From: Jimgerdemannia flammicorona
Lineage: Eukaryota
Length of the DNA: 33,063 bases
Assembly: GCA_003990765.1 (NCBI GenBank)
Contig: RBNJ01000324.1
Coordinates: forward strand, 1 to 33,063
Direction: 5' to 3'
Part shown: positions 5,211 through 32,309 of the stretch, in pieces
Numbering within the stretch: position 1 is the first letter of the stretch
Layout: every line of letters begins with the position of its first letter
Made by a program: the position numbers and the translations under genes
Notes under the pieces: model-generated
Seen by the model: only the letters and a program-made list of their open reading frames with translations
Told to the model about the DNA's origin: nothing
Databases searched by the model: none

Positions 5211-5342
5211 TTCTTCATCATCACTATTTTTGAGGAGAGCTAGTAGTTTGTCATCCTCTTCTTTTATTTTCTTTTTTTCTCTTGTCTGTTTCTCAAGGGC
5301 CTTCTCTCTTCTTTAGTAGTAGATCTCCTTGATTTTACCAGT

Positions 5343-5441
5343 ATATTGATAATACTTATTGACATACTCTATACAGTATATTTGGATTCTATAGAGACAG
5401 ACTTCTTATAGTATATATTCTTTCATAATTTTCTTATACCA
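5343..5441 (-). other. 33-aa Cys/His-rich module in element A pol, between protease and dUTPase
   Basis: WYKKIMKEYIL*EVCLYRIQIYCIEYVNKYYQY; ungapped match to 26381-26479. Confidence 0.8.
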
Positions 5442-5559
5442 GTCTTCTTTACTTATCCATCTGATTTTCTTCTTCTTTTTCTAAGTTGTCACCATATAGA
5501 CTTCCTTTTGTTTACTCTCTTCTTCCTCTATCTTGGACAGAACTCTTTTTTTGATATTG

Positions 5560-5930
5560 ATGGGAATTTGTATCTTCTGTCTATAGTAGATGATCTATAT
5601 CTTCTAAGCATTCAGATCAATTACTGTCTTGGCTTTATGAAGCCACTGGTTGCTGATAAGAATGTTATAGTTGGTTGCATTGGTTATGATTACATTTACT
5701 AGAATAGTTGTTCCTCCAAACTTGATGGAAATATCTCAGATCTTTTTCAGAGATATGGCTCTTATACAGTCTGCTATAATGAATACCAATTTGGTTACTT
5801 CTTCAACTTCCCAACCTAGACAGTCTGCTACTTTCTTACTAAGGAGACATTCTTCTGCTCTTGTATCAATGATAGCCTCAAAGACTCTATTCTCAATTTG
5901 ACAGGTTGTATAGGCAGAGGTCTTATGGTT
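5560..5930 (-). pseudogene. Aspartic protease of element A
   Basis: VFEAIIDTRAEEC; catalytic DTG is changed to DTR (GGA>AGA) at 5859-5867. Confidence 0.85.
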
Positions 5931-5949: not shown

Positions 5950-7330
5950 AAGTTCTCTTGAACATTGTTGGCCTCAGTTATCTTCCATTCTTACTCCTTG
6001 GTTATTTCAGCAAGTCTATATCTTATTTGCTATCTAAATGTGAGTATTTCTGCTAGTTGGCCAAAGATTACATTGATCTTTTATTGACTGAGGTTCTTGA
6101 AGATATTATACTTAAAGGTCTTAGTTTTGTAAAGCTTTTTCTCTTTCTCTCCTTTACTGGCTAGAGTGGTTCTTCAGATAATATCTTGAATAGCTTACTC
6201 TAGCTCTATATCTTGATCTGTTTCTTTACCTTGACTTTCTATAGCAGTCTCCATATACTTTTCTACAGAGTTCTTCTTAGTTCTCCCTAGTGATCTCTTA
6301 TAGGATTGTTTACAGACATCTTTCTTGATAGTCTTAACAGAGTAGACTTTTCATTTCTCTTTATCTGACTCTCCAATCTTCTCAAAGGTAATGATATTAG
6401 TCTATTCCTTATTTTGAGTAATATTATTTAGCTGTACCTTGTGCTTGATTTCACTCATACATATATTTATATGAGTAGTAGCCCTCTTCTCCACAAGTAT
6501 AGTAGATATCTCTCTTCTTGTCTAAGGTAGTGGTAAATTTCTGAACTAGGCAGTAGTCTCTTCCTTTAATTTTCTTTATCACATCTCCTAGTTAAGCTAT
6601 TATTTTAGTGAACTTCTTGACAAGTTCCTCCATGGGGTCACTATTTTTCTGTTATTCAGTAGCTCTTAGTTGAGGTGTGTTTTAATTAATCACTAATAGA
6701 GATCATACCAGTTGTCTTGAGTACTTTGATTTTAACTCTAGTAACTCTCTCCATTATATGGTCTTGTAAGTGTCTGGCTATTCAGTATTACTGAGCATAG
6801 GTAACCTTCTGTATTAGATCTAGGACTATTGATAATGAGTAGATAGCCAGGGCTATCTCTAGATAGATTTCTTTTATGAAGATTACTTTGGCTACTTAAT
6901 CTCTAATAGTAGTAGTATAATCTGTGAGGATTATCTAATATTGGATTCTGATATAGAATATATTTGGATCCTTACTCATTTCTTGATATATTGTATTGAG
7001 CTAATCCTTCAGTATCTGCTTGATCTCATCTGTATAGTATATGGCTCAGAGCCAGGTCTTTGGTACTACTAGCATAGTATCATCATTATTTTCTACATGA
7101 GTTACAGCTGTGAATATTGCTCTTACTAATCCTTAGAGACTAAAGAGTATAAGGGTTACTTGCTGCCTTGCTGTTAGACCCCTTATAGTAGCATATTACT
7201 TAAAATTATTAATAAAGGTAATAATTGACTCATCTGAAGTATAGTCATAAAATACTGATGGTCTCATATACATCTTATCTGGATATCTTAGTTTAATTTG
7301 TATGGTTGTTTGAGTGGTAACAGTTGTTCA
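5950..7330 (-). pseudogene. gag: gag of element A with decayed CCHC zinc knuckle
   Basis: N-terminal RPSVFYDYTSDESIITFINNF gag-like motif. IYYTCGEEGYYSYKY at ~6460-6510 is a knuckle carrying transition changes. Confidence 0.8.
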
Positions 7331-7387: not shown

Positions 7388-7835
7388 TGGAATATAGTAA
7401 ACACATAATCTTAAAAGTATATCAGATTTCTATATCTTGAAAACTTGATCTTCTTTGACTCTATAGAGTCCTCAGAATGCAGGAGTGGGTAAGTTTGAAG
7501 TATATCTACCTACAGGCTTACTAGTTTCTTTACTTTCTCTTTGTTTTGAACTATTTCAATCTGAGGTTTATTTACTCTAAGATACTAGGTTATTTATATA
7601 ATTTTGCTAGCTATGAGATGAATGACTAAGTTATGAGTTATTTTAAAAGTATTGAAACATTTTAATATTGTCAAAATGCTATATTATATTGGATCTTTGA
7701 TTTTGAATTTTTCAAAATATTTAGAAATTATTGAAATCAGGAACTGCTAACTATAAGGCTATGCTAGTTTAGAACTAGTAGTAATTAAGTATCTGTTCTC
7801 TATTTTCTTCTTTCAAATTTGGTTCTACCATCACA
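7388..7835 (-). repeat. 5' LTR of element A
   Basis: Direct repeat of 1149-1595; ends TCACA and is followed by TSD ATAG. Confidence 0.92.
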
Positions 7836-10389: not shown

Positions 10390-10973
10390 AATAGGGGTTT
10401 TAAAGTCATCATTAATACAAGAGTGAGACAATGTCTTCTTAAAAAAAAAAAGCAGTAGACTATCTAGGTTAAAAAATTAAAAAAGCTATAAAACTAATAC
10501 TTATTACAATAGATAGTACTAGAGTTATACTTTTAGAAAAGATTTAAAATATTTTCATTAAGTTTGAATAAGTAACTATCTTAGTAAATATGATTATAAC
10601 TAATACTACTAACTATGATATTCTCATCAGTAATTGATAACTTTATAAGACTAGAGCAATAATTAATATAAATGTCTAAAAGATACAAATTGTCTATAAT
10701 AATACTTATTACTACTCTAAGCTTATCCTTAGATATATAACTCAGATATGTAATAAGATATTACTTAGAGACTTAATATACATATATATCAAGAAGCCTT
10801 TCAATTGTTCTTTTGCTTAGTTATATATATTAAGATTGAGAAAGTATAGTTTCTTTATAGTAAAATAAAGATATTATTCTTTTTTAATAACTATAGTTAT
10901 AAGAGACTTATTCTTATTATATATAGACTAAATCTCATATAATTCAGATTTAAAGAGATTTTCTTTTTAGATT
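10390..10973 (+). mobile_element. Extremely AT-rich relic, possibly a hAT-type transposase remnant
   Basis: Weak plus-strand traces in the expected order: E*DNV (DGW-like), IITNTTNY (VTDxAxN-like), YYYSKLIL (CxxHxxxLIL-like), FFNNYS. Each needs several restorations. Confidence 0.25.
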
Positions 10974-11039
10974 TATATATCAGTTCTCTTTTTTTTCTTT
11001 TTTTATAGTCACTTGGACTCTGCCTTTATTACCAGTCTA

Positions 11040-14000
11040 TGAATAAATATACATCATTTCAACCCACTATCCAATCCCCACAGGGGGGCCCCTCCCTACT
11101 TTCTCATGAATGAAAATCACCCTTTCACCAACTACCCCCACTCTCCCCCTACTTTGCCCACAGATTTTCTCCACCAAGTGGCGCCTCCGACCACCCTGCA
11201 TCCCCCAACCCAGCCACCAGCCTGTTAAGGTGTCTTCCATAAGCCTATGCTATTGCAGCAGCTGGTCCCCCAAGCTCTGTCTCCTCCCATCCTCAAAAAC
11301 AAATAGCCAATGACTGGCCAGCCCCACCCAAATAGCCAATGCCCAATCTAACATAAGCCACTCCTTCCCTATCCCCACTCCTTCCCTATCCCCACTACCA
11401 ATCTATCCCTCAAGTCCTCCCATCACCCCCGTACTTCATCACTCCTACCCTATACCCCTAAGCGATCCCCAATTATCAGCCAAAAATCCCCCAACACCTC
11501 ACACTCTCCTAGCCAATGTTCTGGCATCTGTACATAACCCCCCTTCTGCCCTACATTATGGCACTCCTCACAGTCGAAGCAACCCCCTACAACAAGGTGC
11601 CCTGAGCGAAAATTGAGCATAACATTCCTCTGCAGCATGTGCCACCAGACCACCCGGTACTTTGGTGGCAGCCATGCTCTCACTGCAGTGCTCCAGGTCC
11701 AAACACCATGCCAGTTCCACTCTTCACCAATTCCAACTCCTTGCCAACTGCTAGGCCACAGATCCTGGCCTGGTCCCCTCTGGCATTCCATTCTATCACC
11801 AATGTCGAACTCAACTAAAGGAGCACCACCCAGCAGTATACGGTCCCATCTCTACATTGCTGGGTCCCAATCCTCCTCACCTTCATTCCCCTGCCAACGA
11901 ATACCAATATGGTACACTCCTTCTGCAATTCCCCACCAAAATCCTTTATATCGTAGTTGGGCAGTGTTCAGAAGCCCAACCAAGGAGAGGAGATCACTAG
12001 TTGAGCCCCTTGGCAATGCCCGCCTCTCCCATAACTTCTGTAATAGAGGAACCCATCCACCTCCTCTCAACTCCACTGCCCTCTTCAGCCACTATGCTCT
12101 CAAGCAGTGTAACCGTTTTGAGAAGTCAACCAGCTCAAGACTGCCTCTTGCTACTGGTAGGGACAAGGTCTCCCAATTAATTTGACTCTGCCTGCCAGCC
12201 CAAATCCATCCCTTCACCAACTTCATCAATCTCTTCACTACCCAGGCTGAGAAGTCCAGATGATACGCCAGGTACCACAACTTTGGCAGCCAGTAGACAT
12301 TCAAAATTAAGACCCACCCTACCAGAGAAAAATATCTTCCCCCCCAACTCCGCAGAGCCTCCTCCCAGATTCCAATCCTCTGCTCCCACCAAAGCTTAGG
12401 CAGAACTGACCCATAGACTGACAAGTAGATACCTAAGTACCGTACTACTTCACCGGTGGAGACAATTGTTCCTATAACTTCCCCTCCCACCAGGCCATTA
12501 CCGAGCACCATCATCTCACACTTATGCCAATTCAGCTTAGCTCCAGAATACTCCTCATACTACTCCACAGTCCTCTTGAGCTCCTCAACATCAGCAATCG
12601 AACCCAAACCCACCACCATATCATCAGCAAAGGCCCCAACCTTCCATCCTATGCCAAAAACAGAGAGCCCCACTATCCTCTGCCTAATTCGGTCCATAAG
12701 TGGTTCCAGGGAAAGAGCATACAAAATGGGGGACAATGGATCCCCCTGGGCCACCCCCCTTCCCAAGGGGAATGCTACCCCTCTATGTCCATTACACATG
12801 AGTGCAGCCCTACTCCCTTCCAGTAGGCTGACCATTGTTGACTGGAATTGATGTGGTACCCCCATTCTATTCAAAACTTTCTCCAGCCAGACTCTTCACA
12901 CCCAGTCATATACCTTCTTCTGGTCTAAGAAAACTAGATGCCCATCCAGTCCACAGGCCCTCACCCCTTCGATGATGCCATGCACTCAGGCAGTGCCATC
13001 CCTGATGAGCTGACCACCCACAAATCCCCTCTGCTCAACACCCACGACTTGCTGGGCCACCTTCTGTAGTCTCGCCACCACCACCTTAGTTACCAACTTT
13101 CTGTCTATATCTAGCAGCATTATCGGCTGCCAGTTCTTCCAATTCTCCCACCTTCCTTTGTTTTTGTAGAGCAGTGTCACCAGCCCAAGGTCTTGCTCCC
13201 CCACCCACCTTCCTGTCTGTAGAATAAGGTCACACAATGCTGTCATCTCTCCCATCACCTCTGGGACTTCAGCCATTTGCTTCCAAAAGTCCCAGGGCAG
13301 ACCATCCTCCCCAGGTGCTATACTGGATGTTGTCGCGGCAAGAACCTGGTGGATCTCATCCTCCTGTACAGGCATCACCAGGTTCCCTAGCCCTTCAACT
13401 TGTGGTGGGTGCCAATCCTCCAATGTTCATTCAATTGTAGTGGCATCTGCCCCACCCTCCTCCTCACTCCACAATCCACTCCATCTCTCCTTCAGTGATC
13501 CAAGAATGTCCTGTACACCATGCACCAGTACACCATCAGAGTCCAATACCCCTTCCCACTGTTGCTGGACCCGCCTCACCCTAAGGGCCCTTGTAAGAAG
13601 CTTGGAAGGCCTCTCTCCTTCCTCCAGATCCTGCCAGCGAAGACGTGCTGCCAAGCTCTGTACCCTTGCCTCTTCCTCCTCCCGCAGCACCTGTTGAAGT
13701 TCCCCAACCTCCATTTTCGCCCTCATTAATCTCCAATCTTCTTCTCCCTCCAACATCATCAGCCTTGCCCACTCCTCCAGGAGCCTCATCAATCTAGCAG
13801 AGGCCCAGCGCACTCTTTGTTTTTGCTGCTTCCCTGCCTCCTTGCCAGCCTCCTTCCAGTAAATCCTGGCCATTTCCTTCATTCTCATCTACCGAGTCCC
13901 AACTGCAGCCCCTTCCTGCCTCCAGTTCTCCACCCTCAGTTGAATGTCTTTAGCCCACTCATCCCACTGGGTCTTGTCATCTAACAAAGAGGAATTGAGG

Positions 14001-14740
14001 CGCCAATGTCCAGGCCCATCCCCACTTCCCCCAAAGTGCCCCTGTCCCAAAAGCCCCCAGTGATCCAACCATGGACACCATTCCACCTCCAATGATTTCC
14101 AAACATCTAGTCCCCAGCAGCAGGCCATCAAAATCTAGTCGATTCTAGTCCCCAGACCCCCTGCCCAATGTGTATAGACCCTCCTACTCCCCCAGCACTC
14201 TCTTCCAGCATCCAATAGTGCACTTAGTCTTTCTACTTCCTCCCATGCCACCAGCCCTCCACTCCTGCTCTCAGCACCTCATCCTCCATCTGTTCTATCC
14301 AGCAGTATATTCCTAACCATATTGAAATCTCCCCCAAGCACATCCACCCCAACCTCTGCAAGTAATCCACTCTCCTGTAAGCCTTTCACCCAATCTACCC
14401 TCTCACCCCGTACTGCAGGGCAGTAGCAGGAGCCAACCATAACTGGCTCCCAGCCTGTCTGAATCCACTCTCCCCAGACCAGTCTCTCCCTCCAGCACTA
14501 CATATTCTGTATCTCCCCTCTGCCTTTCCTAACCAAAATCCCAACCTTGCCCTTCCAAATCGCCGTACCTCCCCATTCCTTCATCCATTCTAATCTATCA
14601 GAGTCATCTTCGCACCAGACATCCTGCAAGAGGAAGAGATCGGCCTCCAATCCCTTCATCTAAGTAAAAATGTTCCTATGTCGAGAAGTGCCCCATAACC
14701 CATTCATGTTCAAAGAGAAAATGTTGGTTGTACTATTCAT
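11040..14740 (-). pseudogene. LINE D ORF2: AP-endonuclease, reverse transcriptase, C-terminal Cys/His domain; stops and frameshifts
   Basis: APE motifs SLNMNGL, LFLLQD, GGDFN, RID, (S)DH. RT motifs APGEDGLP, QRGF, QGDPLSP and FADD (12620-12631). CFDC...H...C at ~11500-11580. Confidence 0.93.
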
Positions 14741-14773
14741 ATTGATGATATATGTGATGTTGTCAATCAGCCT

Positions 14774-16798
14774 CTACTGCTCTATACTCATCTCCTCCTG
14801 TACCTTGTCCAAATTATGTTCTGCAGCCCCCTCCTCCTCTTCTGCCCTCTGGGCCTCCAATCCAGCCAGTAGCTCATTCATCTCTCCATCGGCCTTCTCC
14901 TCAAACTCCTCCTGGTATTCGATACATGCTTCCTGCCAGAGCTGTAGTCCATGTCACTTATTCCAGCAGTATTCAGCCCTTTCTCCAGCAATAACCACCA
15001 TCTCCTCCTCCCTCTCCTTATCCACCTCATACCCTTCCTCCTCCAGGTATACTACAAGAATCTCTGCCTTCAATGCCTTCATTATGCCATCTCTCTGCAG
15101 TATATCCACCCAATGCTCATCACTCATCACTCGCAAGTCCACTTCTCCCAACTCTTCTGCCACCAGGTTATTCATTATCTGATACATCCAAAGCAAGTTC
15201 CCCACCTCTTTCCCCCCCAGAGTTGCCAGCCTCCCTCTATCCAACATTGTGGTGTCAGCCCCAGCACTTGCAGACTCATCCCATACTTCCGGGACATCCA
15301 CCAGTTCCTCCTCACCAGCTGCCACCACCTGTCCCCCATATGCCACCTCTGGAACTCTGAATTGCACCCTCTGGGCCCCTTGCATTGGCACATCTTCCAC
15401 CACCCTATTCCAGGAAGCCGGGCCATGCCTGATGAGAGGGGTAGGGGTAGGGGAGCCCACCCAGTCCTCCTCCCACACCTCCAGTATACCATCTGCATAC
15501 AGGTCCTTCCCAGCCTTCTTCTCGTCTTCCCCTGCCTCCTTCTTGTCCTTCCCCTCCCCCTCGCCAGCCCAGACACTCGCTTCAGCTCCCCCTGTACCCT
15601 TCACCTTGCTCACATCCCCCAGTGGTCTGCTATCCAGCTTGGCCAGTAACTCCTTCTGCCTCTTACGCCCCTGAGCCCTTTCCCACTGCTCCTTAGTCAC
15701 TCGAATCTGCTTTCCATCCACCACCTCCAAGTGTGTTGCCTCTTCAAAAGCCTCCCAAGTCTTTGCTCGCCTCTCCACAGTACCCCCCAGCTCTTCGAGT
15801 GCTTCCAGTAAATTCTCCTCCTCCTCCTCACTCCCCTTCACCCTTGTCACCTTACACAGGATCACTCCCCAGATCATCACCGAAGGCCAATCCCTTGCCT
15901 TCCCAGTGGCTTCTTTCCCAGCCAGCCAAATTCTCACATCCACGTCACCAGTCCTAAGCGAGGTCCCTTCCCAGACCCTGAACCCGATATCCACCACCTC
16001 GCCATATTCTACCATGAAATCCTCAACTCTCTTCCTTGTCTCCATCGCTGTTACTGTCGGCACTCCTTTCACCAGTAGTTGGACTACCCTGGGGTCCCAC
16101 TTCAGGCACTGCGCCATTGGAATACACACCTCCCCAACCACCAATCCAACCTTCAGCACCTCCTCCAGTGGTACCACCTCCTCAAAACCCACCTCCACTC
16201 TTTCCAGCCCCTTCAAAAACTTCACGGATACTGCACCTGCCACCTGCTTAGCAATGAGCCCCAGTACCATTTTTGCCATCACTGCCAGGCCCCGGAAGCA
16301 CAGTGTGACTGCGAATGCTGAAATCAATTTCTTGAGTAACGGGGCCACCGCCAGACCCATTACACCATCTGCCAAGTCCTCTTGTCTTCTAAGCCTCAGC
16401 CGCTCAGCCTCGCCATCAGCTGTTACATCTGGATTTTTTTCCAGATTGACAGTCCCAACGCCATCAGCAGTCACACCCCCCCCAGCCACTACTCCTGCAG
16501 CTCCACTGCCCCCCCTTCCAAGGGCCGCACCCCCTGGCACCATCGCCTTCTTGGTCTCCTTGCTCTTCCTCAGCCAGCCCTCTAGCCCCGATGCCTGCTG
16601 TCTCCCCTTCACCATCTCCGTGAAGCTTGCCCTCCCAGATCCTGATCCTCCACCACCTCCTCCACCCCTTCCACATCCACCTGCCAGCAGGCCCCTCATA
16701 CCTCCCCCCAGGCCTGGACTCCTCCCCACCTGCTGCCAGTCGAAAGCGCTCAGGCTGCCCTGCCCAGTACGCACCTAAGGTTGCCTGTCGGTTGCCAT
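14774..16798 (-). pseudogene. LINE D ORF1 (675 codons with two internal stops; includes the 606-aa open stretch 14954-16774)
   Basis: ATG at 16798, SFTEMVK motif, a central RRM-like region (VQLLVKGVP...EYGEVVDI...RTGDVDV) and an acidic C-terminus. Homologous to the ORF1 remnants of E and F. Confidence 0.85.
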
Positions 16799-17269
16799 GT
16801 TGTTAGTCTCTTTTTGCCGAAAACAATGTCGAAAGTGTCTTCCAAAGGTTGTGTAACCTGAATGGTACTGGAAAGAGATGTTGTATATATCAGTTCTCAG
16901 TTTGATAGAAGTTAGCCAAGCTTCTAGAGTTTAGTTAGAAATACTAAGGTAACTTAAACATTATTATTAAGAACTCAGAAGAATGAATATAGAGAAGAGA
17001 CTTCTTATATTTTATACTAAACTAAGAGTTGATTTATTTCAAATATAATTAGTGGAGTATTTATACATATTAGCAAACAAACTATTTAGAGAAAGCTAAG
17101 TTACATATATATCTTTTTACAAAAACTAATATATTCAATAATTTTTACTTTACAATATCTAATTTACAAGATACAGCAGGAGTCTAACTTTGATTTAAAA
17201 TAAATTTTATTGAAATCTATCAAGTTTTGATAAAATAGTAAACTAAGATTCAACTAGCTCTGAGCACTT

Positions 17270-18380
17270 AAAAAGGAGGAGGTCTAGTCTGAATATACCC
17301 AAGAGTTTTACAGTAGTAGCAGGATCTGAAGGTACTGGAGGAAGTAGAGAAGAATAGAGGAGAGCTGCAGGAGTTGAGAGATAGTATATGATAGTAAAGA
17401 GTAAGAGAGCTACTACTAGGCCTATAGTGGTAGAGCAAGAGAGATATAGTATTGATAGAGAGGAGAGTCAGATAATTAGTCAGATACTGAATAGAGATCA
17501 GGGGCAAAAAGGTGTGACTGATATATCTGAGGCTAAGCAGGGCTGGAGAAGAGCTGACAGATAGAGATAATATTACTGAAGATGTAACTATTAAGATAAC
17601 TGAAAGTAAAGAGAGAACTACTTTGGTAGCAGAAACTAGTAAGCTAGTAGTGTGTCCATTCTTTTATAAATTAGTATCAATATGAGTAATCTCTGCCAAC
17701 TATTAGAGATATCTGCTAAAGAAGCTCTATAATTAATAAAAAAAAAGAGGGCTTATAGAAGTAGAGTTACTGAAATTATCCTATCAGCTGAGGTTGAAGA
17801 CTCTGGAGAAAGAGTTGATAATCAAGAGTGTTAAGATTGAGATAGTGAGATACCTATAGTAGAACCCCCCTATAGTAAGATTGGTAATAGAAGAGTTACT
17901 GATATTGAAAAAACAGAAGACAAAAGAGATAATAGTAGAGGTTTTGAAAAAGTATAGCAAGATAGTAGACTTCAAATTCATATTCTAGAAAGGCACCAAG
18001 TTGAGAAATAGAACTTTGAGATAATGGTATATTTAGAGAAGAAGAAAGGAACTAGATTGGGAAAGGATTGGTCTGAGATAATCTATATTACTAACTAAGA
18101 GTATAAGGTGTAAAGGAGAAAGAGGACAGAGTAGAAGAAGGAGAAGCTATCAATTACTCCTGAGGAGAGAGAGGCTGTCAAGATATTATATAAGAGAAAG
18201 TGAGAGAAGTTTGTTAAGGATTAGATTTAGATTCTGGCTAATAGAAAGAGAAAGCAGTAGAGAAAGAAAAACTAAGAATATTACAGACAGTATTGAGAGA
18301 ATCTGAGAGGAGGTAGTAGAGAGGATAGTGATAAATAGCAATCAGATAGAAGGGGTAGAGATAGCTGAGGTGTCCTTTTC
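17270..18380 (+). mobile_element. LINE fragment F (ORF1 only, same clade as D), heavily mutated
   Basis: At ~17850-18020, RYL**NPPIVRLVIEELL...KKYSKIVDFKFIF*KGTKLRN matches D ORF1 QCLKWDPRVVQLLVKGVP...EYGEVVDIGFRVWEGTSLRT. Confidence 0.75.
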
Positions 18381-18414
18381 TTAACTTGAGAGAGTTGAGA
18401 ACTTACTATATATA

Positions 18415-21400
18415 TTTTTTTTTTTTTTTTTTTTTTTTTTGGTTTTTTTACTTTTTTTTTTTTTTATAGGTACTTAGACTCTCTTATTTATTACTAACTA
18501 TTCTATATTATTAATATAGAATAGCCTCTCCTCACCCAATTTTACAGGAGACTCTCTCTCTCTCTCTATTTCTTCACTCTTTTGAATATACTGACCCTCT
18601 CTCTACTCATTATACTAATCTTCTCCACTAACTCATAGAGTTCTTACCCCTGCTACTACCTATTCAGAAGCTCTAATACTAACTACTCTCACCTTATAGT
18701 TTACTTCATAACTCTTACTCCAAGCTCTAACTTTTGGCTATTATCAAAATCATACTATCAATATTTAGCTAGCCTCACCCAAATAGCCAGAGCCTATCCA
18801 ACTATCAACCACTCATTGCCTATCCCTCTTACTAGCTATATATGAAGAGCAACCCACCTTCTCTCTACCCTCTGCTCAGGCAGTTATACTCCCAGCTAGC
18901 CTCTAATTACTCTCCAAAAGTCCTCCAAAACTACCCACTCTTCTAGCCAATTCAGAAGTCTATACCACTCCACTCTCCTGTCTGACATTATAGCACTCCT
19001 CACAATCAAAGATATCTCCTTCTATCAAATATTCTGACTAATAGTTCAATATTATATTCTGATACAAAAACCTCTACCACATCATCCAGAACTTGGGTAG
19101 AAGCTACTATACTACTATCTTACTCTATAACTAGATATCAGCTTTATCTTATCTCTTATTAATATTCACTATCTATCAGGCCTCTGGTCATAGATCTCTC
19201 TCCTGCTTCTAAAGATACTCCATACTATTCTCAAAACTAAAATCATCTATCAGTACACCCCCTAACAGAAGTCAGTCTCACCTCTATATCTAGAGTTCTC
19301 AGTTCTTCTCCCTCATCATCCTGTCATTAGATGCCAATATAATAGACCCCATCTATTACTCCTCACCAGAAACCCTTATAGTATATTCTATAGCTTCTTT
19401 TAAGTACTATCAAAGATAGTAACTCACCAGATACTCTTCTAGAAGAAAACTATATCTTCTATACTCTCTATATAAGAGGGACTTTACTATGACCCCTCAG
19501 CTTACTAGCTTGCTTCAATCACCATACTCTCATATAGTGTAAGCACTTGGTGAAATCTACAAGATCAAGGTCCCCCTCCCTAGCCCACTGGTAATATTGA
19601 TATCTCCTATCCAATCTGACTCTGTCATTCAGCTCAGATCTAAGTCCTGACTATCTTCAAAAGCCTTTTCATCATCTATGTATACTAGAAAGTCCAGATG
19701 ATAATCCAGATATTATAGCTTAGATAACCAATATTACATTCAATACCATTACTTTTCCCACCAGAGAGATATACTGACCACTCCAGTTCAGAAGCATATT
19801 TTTCCACTCTGTCAGTTTCTGCTCCCACTACTCTCTAGACAGTAGAGAGCCATATATCAAGAAGTAGATCTCTAGATAGCAAAATACCTCTCTTACTAGA
19901 GTAATTATACTAACCATATCCCCTCTCACTATATCTTCTCTCAACACTAGAATCTCACATTTGTACTAGTTGAGCTTAGCTCCAGAGCACTTCTCATACT
20001 ATTTTACTACTCTCTTCAACTCTGCTATATTCTCTACAGAGCACAGCCTAACTACTATATTATCTACAAAGGCTCTCATCTTTTGATTTATACTAAGAAT
20101 GTTCAACTCTCTCACCCTATACTGAATTCTATCCAATAAAGGCTCTAATGAGAAGATATATAAAATGGGTAATAGTAGATCACTCTGTAGCATTTCTCTA
20201 CTTAGGGGGAATGAAGCTTCCCTATAACTATTAACCAGGATAGCCACTTGACTTCTCTTTAACAGACTGACCAAAGACTACTAAAATCTATAAAAACTCC
20301 AATATACTTAAGTACTTCAGCCAGCTATACTCACTAAACCATATTATATATCTTTTTCCTAATCTAGAAACACCAGATAACCATCCACTCCTATAGCCCT
20401 CACTTTCTCAATAATATCATAGATCTATGCTATCCTATCTCTAATTATATAAGCAGTCATTAATAAAGTTTCTTTATTTTTCCCTCAGTACTTGTTAGAC
20501 TATTTTCTGCAATCTGGCCATTAAGATCTTTATAATCAGCTTATGATCTATATTCAGAAGTATAATTAACCTTCAGTTCTTCTACTCCTCCCTTCTCTCT
20601 TATTCTTATACAACAAAGTTACAAGCTCCAGATACTGTTCTTCAATCAATGCTCCAGAGTCTATAACTTTATCATATATCTGCTTCATTATTGTAGCCAA
20701 AATCTAAAGAATCTCTACTCCTTGAACTGATACTCCAAGCTTGCCCAAATGCTACTTAATGATCTGTGCATCCTCTCCACCCTCCTTCTCACTCTACAAT
20801 AGCTCTTAATGTCTACTCAACTGATCTAATATGTCCTGAGTCCTCACCATTAGCTATCCTGACTCATTCAATATTCTATCACATTACTACCTCACTCTCC
20901 TCATTCAAAGAAGTCTCAATAAGAACTTTGTAGGCTATTCCCCCTCCTCTAAGCTCTGCTACTACAGCCAGGCTACTATATCCTTCACTCACAAGTCCTC
21001 TTTCTGTCTCAGTAGACTCTACAGTTTCTCTATCTTAAGCTGGACATACTGAACTCTTTAATTAATTATCTTTCTATTCTCCAGCAGTCTAGCCCATTCT
21101 TTCAACAATCTCTCCAACTGGTACAAAGCCCACTATATATAACCTCTCCTCTAAATACTCTTTACTCTTCTAGCCTCTCTCCAAAAGCATGGAGTCTCAG
21201 ATTTCAACTGATACTATTGATCTCCAATAGCAAGTTCTGTCTCTCACTAACTAAGAACCCTAGAGTTAATGTCTACTATCTAGGTATCCTATAAAGAGGG
21301 CTCATCCAACAATGATATATTCAGATACTAATATCCAAACTCCTCTCTACTTCCTCCAAATCTTTCATATCTCAATAGATCTCAATAATCTGACTATAGA

Positions 21401-23209
21401 TACTATACAGTCTCTAATGATTCTCAGACATTCTTCTCTCAGCACTCAGCAGACAGGATCTAGTTAATCTATGAGCCAAGCTCAGCCATCTAGTATATAT
21501 AAACTCATTGATTATCTCACTCTAATCAGCCTATATTTACTAGAGAGCTAAGTCTTTCAATCTTCTCCTAGTCTTTTATTCTCCTACTCCTTCCAGATAG
21601 CCTTCTCCCACTATTAATTCTGTCCAACCTCTCATTGTAAACCATATTAAAGTTTCCACCCATATAGTTAATTCCCATCTCCACTATAGTATCTAAGTCT
21701 TATAATTCATATATTTACTCTATGTGGGTCCCCCTTTCTACTAGACAGTAATAAGACCTGATAACTACTGGGTCCCAGTCTGGTCTCTATTATGTCTCTC
21801 ACACTACCTTACTATTCTAGTGTCTAATATCTCTAATATTTCTTTTTTCCTTCTGAACTAAAATATCCACTCTACTCTATCATACTACTCATCCCCCCAT
21901 TCTCTCATTCAGTCTAGTATATCTAATTTCTCATCACATCTCACATCTTATAGTAAGAACAGATCAGCATCCAGCTCCCTCAGTTAGTAGAAAATGTTCT
22001 TTTACTATACCTATTGATATTATGAGAAAAAAATTCTAATTATACTATTTATATTAAATAACAATTAAAGAGGAATGTCCCATTCTACAATTTTATGCTC
22101 ACTCTATCACTAGTCATATCCAAGTTTCTCTCAGCTATAAGTTTGATATCTTCTTTCTGTTGAGTATCCAGAGCTATCAATATCTCCAGACAGTCCTCTC
22201 CATCCTGGATCTTCATAGATGTTCTGTATTTCTCACATACTATATATCTGATCTCTTCCTCAGGCCCTATAGATAAGCTATATACTCATTAGTAATCTCC
22301 AACAGTACTGTCTCTCTGTTCCTATTGACCTCATACTCCTTCTTCTCTAGTAAAGTTATCATCAACTTATCTCTCAGCTTATATATCACCTCTTTGCCTT
22401 ATATAATATCTCTTTAGTATATCTCATTGATAATATAGAAATTAATCCCACTTCTAACTACCTTCACCCCTAAGTCTAACTTCTGTCTCCTGATCCCTAG
22501 ACCATCCTGGGCCTCTACTCTCACTGACTTATCTCACTCCTCCTCTGGCACATCCTGTAACTTTTCATCTCTCTCTCTTACTGCTAAGATCTCATACTAG
22601 ATGTGAGCCTTATCTTTTATAACTGTATTCTCAGCTATTATGTTCTACTTAAGAGTCACTCTCCCCTCTAGGTCTCTCTCTTATGATGTCACTATCTCTC
22701 CTGCCCAGGCACTGATTCTCAACTTAGCTATCTTGATATTCTCTATCTCTTCAGAACCTCTCTCCAAACTTACCAACAAATCCTTCTATCACTACCTTCT
22801 CTATACTCTCTCTCAAGTAGCTTAGTCTAGATACACTCTCTTATTATTAATAATCTCCACCACTATCTTAACCTTATACTCTTTTCAAGCTAGCTATCTT
22901 CTTTCTGCTACCTCTACTAAGTTCTTTAGTATCTCTAGTAAGTCCTTCTCCTCCTTAGATAACTTCTTTACTCTCAATATCTTATACTCCACCAGTCTCT
23001 ACTTTAGTATTATCAGTCAATCTCTCTCTTTCCTTATATTCTCTTTCTCTATCAGTTATACCCAAATATCTATATTACCTATCTAGAACTCTATATTCTC
23101 TCAGACCCAGAACCTAATATCTATAACATCTCTATACTTCTTGACTATATTGATGATCAGCTTTCTAGCCTTCTTCTTCTTCACTATAGAAATACATATT
23201 AGTGACTAC
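18415..23209 (-). mobile_element. LINE E, 3' part (poly(A), ORF2 ~18520-22060, C-terminal part of ORF1)
   Basis: T tract 18415-18465. The 3' end ATAGGTACTTAGACTCT resembles D (ATAGTCACTTGGACTCT). ORF 19999-20274 is an RT remnant (AFVDN for AFADD). APE motifs GGNFN and LL*DV are present. Confidence 0.92.
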
Positions 23210-23970
23210 TATAATATGTAGAATGAGGTATGACAAGTGATCACATAACTCAGTGAGTAATGACATCATCATATGATTGAGTACAACATATGATATTTTG
23301 AATGACAAATGAACAATGCAGAAAATGATATAAAAAAATGATATTCAGTTTATCTCTAACAATCGGTACTACAGCAACTATTGCCACAGTAGCTGATTAT
23401 TACCTAGTAATTGAGGTCCTGATCACAAAGTTGTTTTTGTCAAAAACCATCTGACAAAAGTTGTGATCATAAACCTCACTATAGTTATCAAATTAGTCAC
23501 CTCATACTTAGCCAGAAATTGCAGACCAACTTATATAAATACTCTCAGTTTCTATCTAAAATAAACCAGTTTTAGTTCAGTCCTTGATACAAGAATCAAG
23601 TCTCCCCCATACATTCCCCTGAGTCTTAATAATGACATCTAAGTAACTCTAGTGTTTTTGACTAAACTCCAGGAGCCTAGCTAACTTCTACCAGAACTGA
23701 GACCAGTATATAAATCCCCAAAGACTTAAGTAAACCCATTGAATCTGAATTCCAAGGTGAATTCAGTCTGTGCACAGCAAAGAACAAGACTCTTGAAATA
23801 TAGGGCAAACCTTTGAAAGATAAGGTATAGCTGCTACAATTACTTTCAAGCAAGTGTTTCCTCAAACTGAAGGCTTCTTGGTATACATTGTATATTAAGT
23901 TCCTAAGTAATAGTCTTACTTCTCTAATTATATAAAGAGTAAGATAGAGATAGAAGTAAGAGTTATTACA
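23210..23970 (+). repeat. 5' LTR of element C
   Basis: Direct repeat of 31539-32309; TATAAATA at ~23535 and AATAAA at ~23560. Confidence 0.95.
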
Positions 23971-24099: not shown

Positions 24100-25850
24100 A
24101 GCCCTTACTATTAGAACCAAGTGATACCAGGAAATCACAGATCCAAGGACCCACCAGCTTGTAATTGACTAGACTTACAAGGATCTATACCAGGTCTTTA
24201 GGACTTACCACCCAGGACTTAGAAATATAGTCAGCCACTGTAGGTTCTATGAACTTCTCCATGAACATATTGAAACCACTAGGACTCCAGAATCTACTAC
24301 TGCAGCCACTCAGGATTTTTTAGAATATATCACACTCCCTGCTACAAAGGAAGTAGCTGCTAAGTGGATTACCTCTGACAGATATCATCATACCCCCACC
24401 AAAACCTCACTCTACTATAGGCTAGTTGTATACTATACCTCTGCCATAACCAGATATGAGAATGAGCAAGTAGGTCACCCATCTCCTACTACTGAACAAG
24501 AAGCAGGCCCATCTTCTCAGCCAGAATCTGACATTCTCTTTGAAGGACCTAGTCAGTACAAGGACACACTATCTCATTGAGAAAGAGAGTCAGACAAAGA
24601 CTCTACAGGTCACCAGTCTGACAATAGCCAACAAGAAACAGCAGGCCTAGAAATTTACCAAGGAACTACAAGTCAAGAAGATAGGACCTCAGAACCAACT
24701 CAGCCATCTATACAGAGGTTTGGTTTACCCTCTCTCACAGGACTCTTTGATCTGATATCCAGGAATCAAGTAACTCTAAGTTATATAGCACCACAACCTT
24801 ATCAGACAGAACAATCTTCAGGAGAATCTACCCCTGCAGGCCCATAACCAATAGTCAATATAATAGTAGATACCAATATTGCAGCACTGACTACCCAGCT
24901 AGCAGCACTAGTAGGGATAGTAGGACAAATTGCTGAATAGAACAAACCAACTAAGGCCTTGCAAATTCCAATATTTAGTGGAAAAAACAGTAACATCAAA
25001 AACTTCATCAATGTAGTTGACACAGGTTACTGAGCAAACCAATGGAATGACAACCAAGTATCTATAGGAATGCTCACCTACAATTAGAATAACACCCTTC
25101 AATAGTTGGTTGCCATATCAGTAGCATAAGTAGAAACAGTAGCCATATTCTTCATTAGAACTGTAGCCGAATTCTGGCAAACCTTAGAACAATACCCAGT
25201 AATCTGAGAAGACTGCCCTCAAGTCAATGGACAAGTATAAGCCTATAACAGACCAGGATGGGATAACTATAAAGCAGGCTTAGGACTCAAGGCCCTACTA
25301 CTAACCAAATTCCAAAATATAGCCTATATACATATAAGAAACTTGGAACAAACTAGCCCAGATAAAGTTCCACAAGAATGGTGAGGAGAATCTAGAAACC
25401 TTTGCTACCAGAATGGATTCCTATCTCAAAACCATTGAACTTACCTATCAGGAAACCAATTTGGCTATCAATGGTATCAGAGCTAACCATCTCTTTACAG
25501 CCCTACCAGACTGGCTCACCCAGAAGATTAAGGAACAAGACCTTCCCCAAGGATATCCCCACTACTTATGGTGCTTTGCCTAAGTACAAAGAAGAGCCCA
25601 TAAAATCCTTGCTGCTCAGGTCCTATGAAATCCAGAATACAAGAAGGATAACTAAGATAGAAAGAATCCTACCAGAAGGAATGATCAAAGAAATGATCAG
25701 AGAAATAATCAAAGAAACCAATGAAACCCCAGAGGACCTAGACCTCCCACTGAGGATGAAAAGAAGCAGCTTCATGAAAAAGGATTGTGTTTCATCTGCA
25801 AGAAGGCGGGACACATCTCATTCAAATGTCCTGAGAAGAGAAACAGATCA
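24100..25850 (+). pseudogene. gag: gag of element C with intact CCHC zinc knuckle
   Basis: IPIFSGKNSNIKNFINVVD gag motif at ~24965; CFICKKAGHISFKC at 25788-25829. The start is approximate. Confidence 0.85.
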
Positions 25851-25913: not shown

Positions 25914-26331
25914 AATATCATCAAAGTGTAAAAGATATGGTACAAGGCTACCATCTCCACTAAAGCCTATCCCACCAATATAGAATATAACCTCTATAGT
26001 AGCCAAGACCTCACCATTCCACTGAGTACCAATACTACAGTATAAATAGTAATTGCAATACAAGCCCCCAAAGGTACATACATCTGCCTTGCTGAGTGAA
26101 GCAGCCTAGCCAAAGAGTTCAATATTAGGCTAGGAGGGGGAGTAGTTGATCAAGGATTTATTAGTGAAATCTGTATCATCTTGTAAAATTTTGGAAATAT
26201 CTCATTTGAAGTCAAAGTAGGCCAAAGAATTGCTAAGCAATTATTAAAGAAATCTATCAAGATCTTACCATTGAAGAAGTCTCTGAGCTCTTTCAGACAG
26301 ACTATAGCAAGAAAGGATTTAGATCAACCAA
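25914..26331 (+). pseudogene. dut: dUTPase domain of element C, between gag and protease
   Basis: All five motifs are present: NIEYNL (restored DAGYDL), *SSLA (RSS), GGVVDQGFISEI, GQRIA, and TDYSKKGFRST (restored TDRGxKGFGST). Confidence 0.9.
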
Positions 26332-26380
26332 CAAACCTCCTAGTCAAAAGGTCACTACTATGAAGGAAGATGATGAAAAC

Positions 26381-26479
26381 TGGTACAAGAGAATTGCAGA
26401 TGGTTATACACCATATGGATGATGCCCTCATTCTATTTGAATATACTGCATGGAACATATTGGTGAATACCATACATGC
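26381..26479 (+). other. 33-aa Cys/His-rich module in element C, between dUTPase and protease
   Basis: WYKRIADGYTPYG*CPHSI*IYCMEHIGEYHTC, in frame with the downstream protease and followed by an acidic linker. Confidence 0.85.
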
Positions 26480-26649
26480 CTCTTCAAAGTTTTCAAAATT
26501 CAATCTGAGAAGTGCCAAGCCCAACAGACTGAGGAACCCAAACAAGACAATCCTCTTTGTGAAGGATGGGAAGAAACTGACTTTGAGGAGACTGATAGCA
26601 ATTGGGACAATAATGAGGATGAAGAGCTCAACACCATCAAGAAGGAAGA

Positions 26650-27030
26650 CAGTTGCATCAAGTTTACAGGCTAAGTCTACAGACAGAATATCAATGTCTT
26701 GCTTGATAGTGGTGCTACTGGAAACTATATCAGCACTAAGACTGCCAAGAGGATTAGAGCTTGAAGCAGGCCAACTAATGAGAAAAGAAGTGTTATCTTT
26801 AGTGATGGTAAGACTGTACTACTGACCAAGATCTGTGAAGATCTCTTGCTCAAGATTGGCAAATATCAAGAAAAGTTGAACTTCAGCATTATAGATCTTC
26901 CAGGACAGAATATTATTCTAGGAAAAGCCTGGTTGACCCAGCACAACCCAGATATCAACTGGAGGACCAATAAGATTAATCTGATCCATAAAGATAGAAA
27001 AATCACCCTGATACCCCAAGAAGGTATCAA
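26650..27030 (+). pseudogene. Aspartic protease of element C
   Basis: VLLDSGATGNYIS (DSG at 26705-26713) and IILGKAWLTQHNPDINW. Confidence 0.93.
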
Positions 27031-27179: not shown

Positions 27180-28500
27180 TCCAAGATATATTCCAAGATC
27201 CTCAAGGACTTCCACCCAAGCACCAAATCCAATATAGAATTAATCTCATTCCAGGATCTGAACCCCCATACAAGAGTATCTATCAACTGACCCAATCTGA
27301 ACTCAAGACCCTCAAGGATGAGTTGACCAAACTACTGACCCAAGGATATATTAAACCCAGCCACTCTCCATTTGGAGCCCTCATTCTGTTTGTCAAGAAG
27401 AAGGATGGCTCTCTGCAAATGTATATTGACTACAGAGCCCTCAACAAGACCACCATTAAGAACCAGTATATCCTACTAAGGATTGATGAGTTGTTGTACT
27501 AAATCTTCAAGGCCAAGACCTTTTCCCTACTAAACTTGTGAAATGGCTACTACCAGATTCTCATTGATGAGAAGGACATTGAAAAGACAGCTTTCTGAAT
27601 GTGATTTAGACACTACCAGTTCCAAGTCATGCCTTTTGGTTTAACTAATGTACTAGCAACATTCCAGTACTTGATGAATGATATCTTTAGACCACTGCTC
27701 AACATCTGTATTCTTGTATATATTGATGATATACTAATCTATAGCAAAACAGTAGAGCTATACTATACTCACCTCAGACAGATACTGACCCTTCTGCAAG
27801 AATACCAACTCTATGCCAAGATGAGCAAGTGCAAGTTCTATCAAGACCAGATTGAGTACCTAAGACATATCATCTCTGCTGAAGATATCAATGTGGATCT
27901 CTAAAAGGTATCAGCTCTTAAGGATATCTCTATCTCCACTATCCTTAAGCTACTTCAGCACTTTCTGAGTATTGCTAGTTACTACTGAAGATTTATCTAA
28001 GGATACTCTGCTATTATAGTCCTACTGACCAGCCTAGCTCACAAAGGAGTAAACATCAAGATTGAATGGATCTCCAAATATATTCAGACTATGGACCATC
28101 TCAAAAGACTCCTTACTGAGACCCCAGTACTAATTGTACCTGACCCTACTAGGCCATTTACTCTGACTACAGATGCCTCTGACATTGCCATAGGGGCAGT
28201 GCTCAGCCAAAAAGATTACCCAGTGGCCTACCTTTCCCAAAAACTCAAGCCAGCTGAGATCTGGTATACTACTTATGAGAAAGAACTCCTGGCCATTATC
28301 ACTGTACTCTAAAAATAGCACCATTTCCTCCTAGGACAACTATTTGTGGCCTACACTGATCACTATGCTCTGTGGTATATCTACACACAGCCCATGCTGA
28401 TCTACAGACAAGTCTGCTAGATGGAAATCATTACCAACTTTGATATGGAAATTAAGTATATGTATCCCAGACAAAACCAACCATGTGGCTAATAGTTTCT
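27180..28500 (+). pseudogene. Reverse transcriptase and RNase H of element C
   Basis: [28 protein letters not shown] (27719-27730), FTLTTDASDIAIGAVLSQ, YEKELLAI and YTDH. Confidence 0.96.
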
Positions 28501-28699
28501 CCAGATATATAGAAGATGAACTTGTCTTCATAGTCGAAGTAATTAGAGATCTTATCCAGATGATCAAGAATGGCTACCAGCAAGACAGCCCTCTGATGAA
28601 TTTCCTTTAATTCTGCCAAGACCCAGAGGCTGAGGTCTCCGAACCCATGAGGCAAATGTCCAAGAGATTCACTTACTATGATGGACTTATCTATAGAGA

Positions 28700-29995
28700 C
28701 TATGACAGAGTGGTTGTACCCAACAATGATACTCTGTGGCTCAAGATCCTACAGGAACTCCATGATACTCCTGCAGCAAGACACTTTGGTTTTGAGAAGA
28801 CCTATAATCTCCTCTCAAGAGAGTTCTACTGACCAAGGATGACCAAGGATATCAAAGACTTTGTGGCCTCATATAAGATATACTAAAGGTACAAAAGTAG
28901 TATTAAGCTACCAGTAGGACTTCTACAACCTCTGCCTATCCTGAGTCATAACTGGGATCAGATTGCAATAGACTTTATTGTTCAGCTCCCCAAGACCAAA
29001 GCAGGATGAGATGCCATTGTGGTATTTGTAGACCGCCTAAGCAAACAAGCCCATTTTGCACCCACCAAGATTACTGCTACAGTACCAGAGATTGCTAAGA
29101 TTTTCCTCAATCTAGTATTCAGACTATATGGTATGCCTAGCACTATTATATCTGACCAAGATGTCAAGTTTACAAGTAACTTCTAGAAGGCATTTTTCTC
29201 TCTCTATGAAATCAAGCTGAAGTTCTCTACTGCCTACTACTTTCAGATGGACAGTCAAACTGAGCAAATCAATAGAACCCTCAAGCAGATGCTTAGCATC
29301 TTCTGCTATTATAAGCAAAATGATTGGGACAAGTATCTAGCCTATGCCAAGTTTGTCTACAACAATAGCCAGCAAACCTCTATAAAGAAGACTCCATTCT
29401 TCCTGAACCACAGTCAATATCTAAAGACCCTGAGTACTATTGCAAAATCAGTAGTCTCAGTAGCCCAATATCTGGCTGAGACTATTTCTGATCTTACCTG
29501 AATGATAAGAGATGCTCTCATAGAAGCATAGGACTATCAGACCAAGTATGCAAACTTGAAGCAAAGAGAAGTCTTCTACAATATTAGTGACATAGTTATG
29601 CTTAGAACAGACTACCTCCACCCAGATACTCTGGCACAACAACCAGCCAAGAAACTCTATACTAGAAGAATTGAACTATACAAGATTGTGGAAAAAGTCA
29701 GGAAAGTTAACTATAAGTTGCAACTTCCTCATAATATCTGAGTATACTCAGTATTCCATATCAGTCAATTGGTGGACAACTATGAGAACCCATTCCCTGA
29801 GCATACAGTTCCACCTCTACCCCCAATTAGGATTAATAATCACAAGGAATTCGAAATTGAGGAAGTACTTGACCATAAGGTCCATAAATACCCCAAAACA
29901 GTTGAGTAGTTTTTCCTCATCAAGTGGAAGGGTTACCCCACCCATGATGCTATCTGGGAAAAAGAAGAGGCTCTAGAGAATGCATGTGAAGCCCT
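28700..29995 (+). pseudogene. Integrase with C-terminal chromodomain, element C
   Basis: HDTPAARHFG, IAIDFIVQLP, ISDQD and DSQTE. Chromodomain EFEIEEVLDH...FLIKWKGYPTHDAIWE at 29847-29990. Confidence 0.95.
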
Positions 29996-30689
29996 CTAGC
30001 ACTATATGGAAACACTCATCCCCCAGCAAAGAAAAGAACTACAGCTCTAAAAATTAAAGCACATAGCAATAGGAGGATACTACATATTCTTATCTGAAAT
30101 ATATAATACTGAACATTGCAGAAAAAAGAAACATCATAGTTAATCAATACAAAAATACTCAGGCAAAGAACAATCTAGCATAGTGTAGCAAAATGCATTT
30201 GAACAACTTCATTTCATGCTATTTATATCATTTCTACTAGATAATGACAGATACTTCATACATATGGAACTTAGGAAAGCTGATAATGTTGAAACCAATC
30301 TAAGCCCATCTATATGACAGATATTATTACTAGAAATTGTCTCAGATTATAAGAAATACTATTTCCAAGAGGTTTGAACCCCCAGCCATAACAATGGGAG
30401 CTCTCACCCTAGACAAGAATTATTAGTTCTCACAAATGTACTAACCAGACAAAAAAAAAGAGGACTAAGATCTGTCAATCCTGTGTAACCACAATTGCAA
30501 GAAGCGATATCTTTGAAATCAGGATTTTCTCATGTGACCAGCATATGCTCAGCTTATAGCAATAGGTCACACATTTTGCTGGAAAGCATGACCAAAAGAA
30601 GGTTACATCAGACAGAGGAATAGGTATAAATACCCAAGGCCAGAATATTCCACAACTCTTATCCCCCTCTCTTTATAAAGAAAAGATAG

Positions 30690-31538: not shown

Positions 31539-32309
31539 TGTAATAGAATGAGACATGACAAGTGATCATGTGATCTGGTGAGTGATGATATCATCATACA
31601 ATCAAGCATAATATATGATATTTTGAATGATGAATGAATAATGCAGAAAATGATATAAAAAAATGATATTCAGTTTATCTCTGACAATCAGCACTACAGC
31701 AACTATTGCTATAGCAGCTGATCATTGTCTAGTAATTGAGATCCTAATTATAAAGTTGTTTTTGTCAAAAACCACTTGACAAAGATCACAATCACAAACC
31801 TCACTATAGTTACAAAATTAGTCACCTCATACTTAGCCAGAAATTGTAGACCTTGTATAAATACCCCCAGTTTCTATCCAAAATAAACCAGTTTTAGTTC
31901 AGTCCTTGATACAAGAATCAAGTCCCCCCCATATACATACATTCCTCTGAGTTTTAGTAATGATATCTAAGTGACTCTAGTGTTTCTGACTAAACTCCAG
32001 GAGCCTAGCTAACTTCTGCCAGAATTGAGACCAGTATATAAATCTCCAAAGACTTAAGTAAACTCATTGAATCTGAATTCCAAGATGAATTCAGTCTATG
32101 CACAGCAAAAAACAAGACTCTTGAAAGATAGGGCAAACCAGAGAAAGACCTTTGAAAGATAAGGCATAGCTGCTATAATTACTTTCAAGTGAGTACTTCC
32201 TCAAACTGAAAACTTCTTGGTATATATTGTATACTAAGTCTCTAAGTAATAGTCTTACTTCTCTAATTATCCAAAGGGTAAGAGAGGGGTAGAAGTGAGA
32301 GTTATTATA
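31539..32309 (+). repeat. 3' LTR of element C
   Basis: Starts TGTAAT, ends ATTATA (from ATTACA), and aligns with 23210-23970. Confidence 0.95.

Follow-up and report, generated by a model that had tools for sequence, protein, structure and literature searches.

The locus described here raises the question of what a short peptide rich in cysteine and histidine is doing beside the dUTPase of two decayed retrotransposons, and whether it is a peptide domain at all. The window (the whole stretch of Jimgerdemannia flammicorona DNA that was analysed, 33,063 nucleotides of contig RBNJ01000324.1) contains two elements, A and C, which are both dUTPase-bearing Ty3/gypsy LTR retrotransposons with LTRs, a gag CCHC knuckle, protease, reverse transcriptase (RT), RNase H, an integrase of the H2C2 type and a dUTPase. 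The original prediction had placed an unrecognised 33-residue Cys/His module next to the dUTPase in both of them. This placement is correct: the module lies 17 codons after the end of the dUTPase in element C, and in element A the partial dUTPase match is 56 codons downstream of it.

Element C is read on the plus strand. Its 5' LTR (23219-23968) and 3' LTR (31544-32307) belong to the direct repeat families D2-D5 (85-94% identity, spacing approximately 8325). Between them follow, in order, the gag CCHC zinc knuckle (25788-25829; C-x2-C-x4-H-x4-C, read directly as a motif), the dUTPase (25956-26329), the module, an acidic linker, the protease, RT/RNase H and the integrase. The dUTPase was located by mapping a Pfam dUTPase match on an intact relative, P0153 (residues 295-423, E 4.6e-33), through ungapped tblastn HSPs; it shows a frame change near 26237-26252 and a dUTPase motif at 26309-26332. 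The Cys/His cassette (26363-26500 as a whole, with a tblastx HSP at 26375-26500 and the originally reported core at 26381-26479) is decayed and has two in-frame TGA stops. The start of the aspartic protease (26675-26788) gives weak Pfam matches under the cut-offs (Asp_protease_2 and gag-asp_proteas, E 0.004-0.005), and its D-S-G lies at 26705-26713, approximately 75 codons past the module (the D-S-G-A motif was read directly). The integrase region (28728-30005) comprises an H2C2 zinc domain at 28728-28898 (Integrase_H2C2, E 2.7e-15), a Tf2-type SH3 domain (SH3_Tf2-1, E 9.8e-13) and a chromodomain at 29850-30005 (Chromo, E 1.5e-09). RT and RNase H of element C share one frame and the integrase is in the +1 frame, the switch falling near 28.4-28.6 kb (28400-28650, plus strand).

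Element A runs on the minus strand, in the order gag CCHC, protease, module, dUTPase, RT/RNase H and integrase. An LTR was delimited at 1155-1454 (a minimum extent; direct repeat family D1, 87% identity, spacing 6239) with its partner at 7394-7693. The gag CCHC knuckle (6463-6504) is decayed, with Tyr at three of its four Cys/His positions, and is read by spacing only. The aspartic protease (5589-5927; Pfam RVP_2, E 6.3e-06, residues 32-144 of P0002) ends 49 codons before the module. The cassette itself spans 5322-5459 (reported core 5343-5441), is more heavily decayed than that of C and has one TAA stop in the core. Downstream are a partial dUTPase match at 4929-5174 (PF00692, E 9.3e-09, residues 283-364 of P0002) and the integrase H2C2 zinc domain at 2953-3108 (Integrase_H2C2, E 5.4e-06; rve, E 1.3e-05). 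In the one frame scanned with Pfam, no chromodomain was found in element A at E<=0.001. Of the claim that the module is shared by a chromovirus and an element without a chromodomain, the first half is thus secured by the chromodomain of C and the second holds for that frame. The module is located between protease and dUTPase in both elements, with the order of the two enzymes swapped.

The space between A and C is partly occupied by a LINE-type (non-LTR) retrotransposon (10800-17400, minus strand), which matches Exo_endo_phos (E 1.6e-4) and RVT_1 (E 2.2e-27) and has a 606-residue open frame at 14954-16774. At 50-56%, the GC content of this LINE exceeds that of the rest of the window (20-42%), and there is a strong C>G skew on the plus strand. 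In the adjoining region (17400-23300), an AT-rich stretch at 18.7-20.9 kb (GC approximately 36%) gives four weak blastn matches to the LINE, collinear and at a constant offset of approximately 7.3-7.45 kb; judged by these matches, it looks like a diverged second LINE copy.

Re-translation of 26381-26479 (plus) and 5343-5441 (minus) reproduced the peptides exactly as they had been given, and the gapless alignment claimed between them is also correct, with 12 of 33 residues identical and a BLOSUM62 score of 72. At the DNA level the two cores agree in 57 of 99 bases and differ by 31 transitions and 11 transversions. When the gag-to-RT regions were compared in all nine pairings of sense frames, the best 33-residue window was the module pair itself (score 81, shifted by two residues and thereby taking in E-[DN]); the runner-up among real windows scores 45. 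The same search on 100 residue shuffles gave best scores averaging 38.9 (sd 3.6, maximum 50), none of which reached 72. The significance of the A-C alignment against shuffled controls, one of the points at which the original prediction had offered itself for refutation, therefore held. A six-frame scan of the whole window revealed no third copy of the module at a score of at least 40, and a degenerate DNA pattern for the core matches at only the A and C sites (0.02 expected). The similarity of the two modules is not due to chance, and the observation is confirmed. A fortuitous resemblance of two AT-rich decayed sequences has nothing in its favour beyond the low complexity of decayed DNA, and runs against the shuffles, the six-frame scan, the DNA pattern and, as described below, both the transition-reversion background and an independent intact relative; we consider its probability next to nil.

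This intact relative was obtained by a word-index protein search with the A/C module alignment, which returned a sole protein, P0153, at E 2.5e-18 among 5.77 billion sequences. P0153 (485 residues, source 'jgi') is encoded on one contig of 2037 nt, its open reading frame running to the contig end. The open frame spans a gag CCHC knuckle (zf-CCHC at residues 242-258, E 0.0043, below the cut-off), the dUTPase mentioned above and the module, over which it is about 80-82% identical to copy C. The module of P0153 reads W-Y-K-R-I-A-D-G-Y-A-P-C-G-R-C-P-H-S-I-R-M-Y-C-M-E-H-V-G-E-C-H-A-C. In this intact cassette a short lead (W-Y-K-[RK]-I...G-Y) precedes the Cys/His cluster, whose putative ligands follow the pattern C-x2-C-x-H-x5-C-x2-H-x3-C-H-x-C, that is, five Cys and three His in 22 residues. 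The consensus originally derived from A and C (C-P-H-G-I-x-I-Y-C-M-E-H-x2-E-Y-H-x-C) captured a real Cys/His module and was incomplete: P0153 adds an upstream C-x2-C and has Cys in place of Tyr. Loss of the Cys/His positions in the family, which had been put forward as a possible refutation, is not what is seen, as P0153 carries all eight.

Both window copies are dead, with C>T/G>A transitions throughout. Two Cys of the P0153 module are replaced by Tyr in copy C, and two Arg by stops; in all, C>T/G>A changes on the side of the window copy account for 89 of the 109 amino-acid differences between copy C and P0153, and for 15 of the 16 stops among them. For element A, a tblastn search with residues 439-477 of P0153 finds 5447-5331 (E 3.1e-4). 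Here 11 of the 33 core positions are identical to P0153 and 17 more are reachable by undoing C>T/G>A changes, giving 28, against a mean of 5.3 (sd 2.0, maximum 14) at 5647 other offsets in the same element. The idea that such decay explains the deviations of A is thus largely upheld. Of the eight core Cys/His, seven are either kept in copy A or recovered there by undoing transitions. The first Cys of the pattern is TAA there, and because transitions alone cannot restore it, the eight-ligand pattern may be absent from the A lineage.

How the cassette compares with the rest of the elements can be seen from a tblastx comparison of A and C, which gives four HSPs only: the module, the RT core, RNase H and the integrase. 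The proteases and dUTPases of the two elements give no HSP at E<=0.01, and the dUTPase of P0153 is 26.6% identical to that of A. The cassette is nearly the same in A and C, but their dUTPases are only approximately 27% identical, so that the two parts have different histories. As a measure of divergence we chose transversions, because C>T/G>A decay does not make them. Over the HSPs the module has 17 transversions in 126 positions, against 179 in 639 for RT, RNase H and integrase (Fisher p 4.9e-4); per 99 nt it has 11, whereas none of 117 windows in the three pol HSPs has fewer than 22. At third codon positions the numbers are 6/42 for the module and 76/213 for the pol HSPs (p 0.006); a count of 'putative four-fold' codons, which admitted 36 of 42 codons and is too permissive, adds nothing to this third-position count. 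After undoing transitions, 30 of the 33 codon pairs of the module are able to share a residue (maximum 25 in the 117 pol windows).

The boundaries of the similarity are equally clear. Purine/pyrimidine identity between A and C is 0.8-1.0 from approximately 26360 to 26500 and about 0.5 (random) on either side, and the similarity falls to random within approximately 15 nt of both cassette ends. The cassette is a discrete unit of approximately 45 codons, set in unrelated linkers and better conserved than the cores of RT, RNase H and integrase; these sharp boundaries and the low divergence are a new result of the present analysis. Having half the transversion divergence of the pol cores points to exchange between lineages or to unusually strong constraint. 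Because the cassette is so much less diverged than the rest of pol, it has probably been passed between two gypsy lineages rather than inherited with them. Nonetheless, the low number of third-position transversions is not clean evidence of recent exchange: many codons of the cassette are two-fold (W, Y, C, H, K, E), and in such a sequence protein constraint alone lowers this number.

The same sharp boundaries and scarce third-position transversions might be argued to reflect conservation of a nucleotide-level element, for instance a structured RNA hairpin in the genomic RNA, with the peptide similarity partly a by-product or dual-coded. The RNA of copy C (26363-26500, plus strand) indeed folds into a long imperfect hairpin of -35.7 kcal/mol (z -3.0; 1 of 200 shuffles as good), in which first-half codons of the Cys/His cluster pair with second-half codons. 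On the A/C alignment 77.8% of cells pair, compared to 27-45% with the partners slid; six pairs are changed on both sides, and helix 3 (25 pairs) is 84% paired with five double changes. However, the structure was derived from C, which biases the slide control in its favour, and copy A folds differently from C and no better than many shuffles (z -0.68; 50 of 200 as good). The double changes are moreover CG-to-UA replacements, such as C>T/G>A decay yields in the absence of selection, and the covariation score is reached by 37 of 500 shuffles, two sequences giving no power in such a test. The Cys/His pattern and the open frame of P0153 argue for a peptide, and we regard the RNA explanation as very unlikely.

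As a peptide domain, the cassette was compared with the zinc fingers already known from retroelements and with other finger families. The original prediction excluded the gag CCHC knuckle, and correctly so, as judged by spacing (C-x2-C-x4-H-x4-C for zf-CCHC, PF00098) and by profile match: the module has C-x2-C-x1-H-x5-C, and zf-CCHC is not listed for it at E<=10 although it is listed for the gag knuckle of P0153. The exclusion of the integrase HHCC finger (Integrase H2C2, PF17921; H-x(3-7)-H-x(23-32)-C-x2-C at the integrase N-terminus) is equally justified; the module has no H2C2 match in Pfam, and both A and C carry an H2C2 domain elsewhere. For the intact module of P0153, Pfam at E<=10 lists DUF1451 alone, through its zinc-ribbon part (E 0.054; 14.1 bits, where the cut-off is 26.1), and neither zf-AN1, zf-CCHC, an integrase finger nor any other finger family is listed at that threshold. 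A zinc ribbon such as DUF1451 (PF07295) holds two C-x2-C knuckles on beta-hairpins; in the module C-x2-C occurs two times at a distance of 14 residues, and the AlphaFold2 model of the module is helical, at low confidence. A profile search of PDB sequences gave only alphaRep (E 0.14), which was taken as an artefact; the matches to designer PPR and alpha-solenoid proteins are likewise artefacts, being the sum of nine repeats at 2-3 bits each.

The AN1 finger (PF01428) has the pattern C-x2-C-x(9-12)-C-x(1-2)-C-x4-C-x2-H-x5-H-x-C. Locally the module resembles the C-terminal half of this finger (C-P-H/C...[YF]-C-x-x-H...H-x-C), but it lacks the first C-x2-C pair and has spacings of x7 and x4 in place of the x4 and x5 of AN1. 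Five in-frame archaeal AN1-like fingers share C-P-H-x4-Y-C-x-E-H with the module, a likeness that is imposed by the search pattern. When the module profile was aligned by hhalign with two archaeal AN1 fingers (taken from pattern-matched proteins, but not themselves selected by the pattern), the probability was 0.1% (E 0.54, 7 columns), and AN1 membership was rejected. Three of the archaeal open frames with AN1-like fingers, from two Halorubrum records and a Methanobacteriota MAG, may be described briefly: those at L016:2972-4384(-) and L032:3665-4378(-) have two such fingers followed by an acidic linker, and the one at L024:3662-4330(-) is cut at the contig end, with the second finger alone visible. 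Their tails hold a membrane anchor (L024 and L032) or a CAP (cysteine-rich secretory protein) domain (L016; Pfam E 1.1e-10).

A looser DNA pattern gave 37 matches in prokaryotic genome contigs, against approximately 69 expected by chance (by our own arithmetic), and none of the 37 has C-x2-C directly before C-P-H or the W-Y-K lead within 15 residues upstream. The stricter DNA pattern C-P-H-x3-I-Y-C-x-E-H, which demands Ile where P0153 has Met and hence misses P0153-type copies, gave 0 matches in viral contigs; in metagenome contigs, where such copies would escape it in the same way, its single match is due to chance, in a non-coding frame. No loci related to P0153 were found on viral contigs. 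At the protein level, a word-index search with a stretch of element C (dUTPase end, module and protease start) gave 165 candidates, none at E<=0.01; a word search in which the query was just the P0153 module found no protein other than P0153, and the ESM Atlas yielded no usable match to the module. Structure prediction by AlphaFold2 without an alignment gave models that are unusable: the module has a pLDDT of 59 (three helices), and P0153 as a whole has 41, with even the dUTPase unfolded. Foldseek with the low-confidence model of the module found 0 matches at E<=10.

By sequence profiles and patterns, the module is therefore assigned to none of the named families compared, the zinc-ribbon match lying below its cut-off. 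The corresponding claim of the original prediction stands after Pfam, PDB sequences and the AN1 profile test, and no already described domain came up to refute it. Could it still belong to a named zinc-finger family (AN1-like, zinc ribbon or CCHC knuckle) and have diverged beyond recognition by sequence tools? The weak DUF1451 match speaks for this, as do the archaeal AN1-like fingers, although the latter likeness is pattern-forced and hence only a lead. Against it are the lack of any finger family at E<=10 in Pfam, the hhalign result, the deviating AN1 spacings with their missing first C-x2-C, and the artefactual nature of the PDB matches. We give this possibility only a slim chance.

The module is a real but unnamed unit and probably constitutes a small zinc-binding domain. 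What had been called a metal-binding accessory domain without a named family is confirmed as a conserved and unnamed Cys/His module; the metal binding is suggested by the pattern of residues alone. As a conserved peptide, the cassette combines eight Cys/His with several basic and aromatic residues. One or two zinc ions held by the eight Cys/His would give the peptide its fold, that of a small knuckle of basic character and rich in aromatic residues, and this knuckle might contact nucleic acid or a partner within the reverse-transcription complex. The neighbouring dUTPase would thereby be held at the site of cDNA synthesis, by analogy with the nucleocapsid (NC) in the betaretroviral NC-dUTPase fusion. 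The reading that we prefer, tentatively and at somewhat less than even odds when taken as a whole, is that the cassette is a real peptide domain of approximately 45 residues in the Gag-Pol polyprotein of fungal dUTPase-bearing Ty3/gypsy elements, which would act as a zinc knuckle tying the dUTPase to cDNA synthesis and has probably been passed between lineages. A complex prediction for a dUTPase trimer with the module and 2 Zn gave a score of 0.13 and a mark of 0.34, which speaks neither for nor against such a tie.

The main rival of this proposal concerns the link with the dUTPase. All three carriers (A, C and P0153) have a dUTPase within 17-56 residues of the module, which is weak evidence given that they represent two independent lineages. 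Because only these two lineages and one intact relative have been seen, the adjacency could be a by-product of a permissive linker beside the protease. The module might then be a generic extra zinc knuckle, for instance a second NC-like or G-patch-like nucleic-acid binder on the protease, which has no link with the dUTPase, both extras simply residing in a linker that tolerates insertions. In line with this, the module is on opposite sides of the dUTPase in A and C, yet always between protease and dUTPase; the divergence histories of cassette and dUTPase differ; and, according to the available part of PMC2864245, the position of the dUTPase varies among fungal gypsy families. Apart from the constant proximity of the dUTPase, a second weak observation goes against it. 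An exhaustive HMMER search of a representative library with a 750-residue query from element C, reaching from the module to RNase H, gave 165,019 matches, and among the best 150 of these RT relatives none aligns over the module (best gapless score against it 26) and 0 of 150 have a dUTPase, so that neither module nor dUTPase occurs in them. A generic knuckle of this kind is, in our estimation, unlikely, but it deserves to be taken seriously.

The tie between knuckle and dUTPase may also be thought of more boldly. The cassette could be a self-contained mini-domain of approximately 45 codons that moves between unrelated lineages by recombination, with two zinc sites in 22 residues and a fold outside Pfam and PDB; it would have been selected because it links an acquired dUTPase of either orientation with the reverse-transcription complex, and the stretch might in addition be dual-coded through a conserved RNA hairpin. 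We consider this extended version improbable.

A zinc knuckle adjoining a retrotransposon dUTPase is already in print. In the Juno LTR retrotransposons of bdelloid rotifers, as described in the portion of Rodriguez, Kenefick and Arkhipova 2017 available to us (PMC5408684), the dUTPase lies between protease and RT and is 'followed by an extra Zn knuckle'. According to that portion, Juno, a retrovirus-like LTR element, has in common with the fungal elements a small module of the zinc-knuckle type which adjoins the dUTPase and is placed after the protease and before RT, but it has an animal host and belongs to another element lineage; the two are likened here by description. The fungal module differs from what is said there in that it also occurs upstream of the dUTPase (in A) and has a Cys/His spacing unlike that of a CCHC knuckle.

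A second precedent is the NC-dUTPase of Mason-Pfizer monkey virus and other betaretroviruses; following the accessible text of PMC1802613, its zinc-knuckle NC domains adopt the symmetry of the trimeric dUTPase to which they are fused once oligonucleotides are bound. This betaretroviral protein resembles the present arrangement in that a zinc-knuckle nucleic-acid-binding domain is covalently joined to a trimeric dUTPase in a retroelement polyprotein, next to the protease; its knuckles are, however, the CCHC fingers of the Gag NC as given in that text, whereas element C has a separate gag CCHC in addition to the unrelated pattern of the module.

Close in host and element type are the fungal Ty3/gypsy elements and chromoviruses with a dUTPase of variable position that are named in the consulted part of PMC2864245, namely PosPlaTy3-3, -4 and -5 of Postia placenta, in which the place of the dUTPase in the polyprotein varies, the Phanerochaete elements and Tmt1 of Tuber. 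Placed beside the PosPlaTy3-type elements as this part presents them, C has the arrangement gag-dUTPase-protease with a chromodomain, and A has protease-dUTPase-RT. The account differs from ours in that, as far as that part goes, only CCHC and HHCC fingers are named, the word 'zinc' occurring 0 times in the main text. In the accessible text of the literature on dUTPase, retrotransposons, zinc fingers and fungi or arbuscular mycorrhiza, including an Entomophthora preprint, we found no description of the present module.

Given these precedents for a knuckle beside dUTPase, and with the host copies dead, the impact of the finding is confined to retroelement biology and domain annotation, and the cassette is a modest addition to the known parts of retrotransposons. 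The wiring of accessory domains into the replication machinery of retroelements is poorly understood, and the cassette, which accompanies the dUTPase in both gene orders and is better conserved than the RT core, is a candidate adaptor in this respect. For these reasons it is also a candidate for shuffling between retrotransposon families at a scale below that of the domain.
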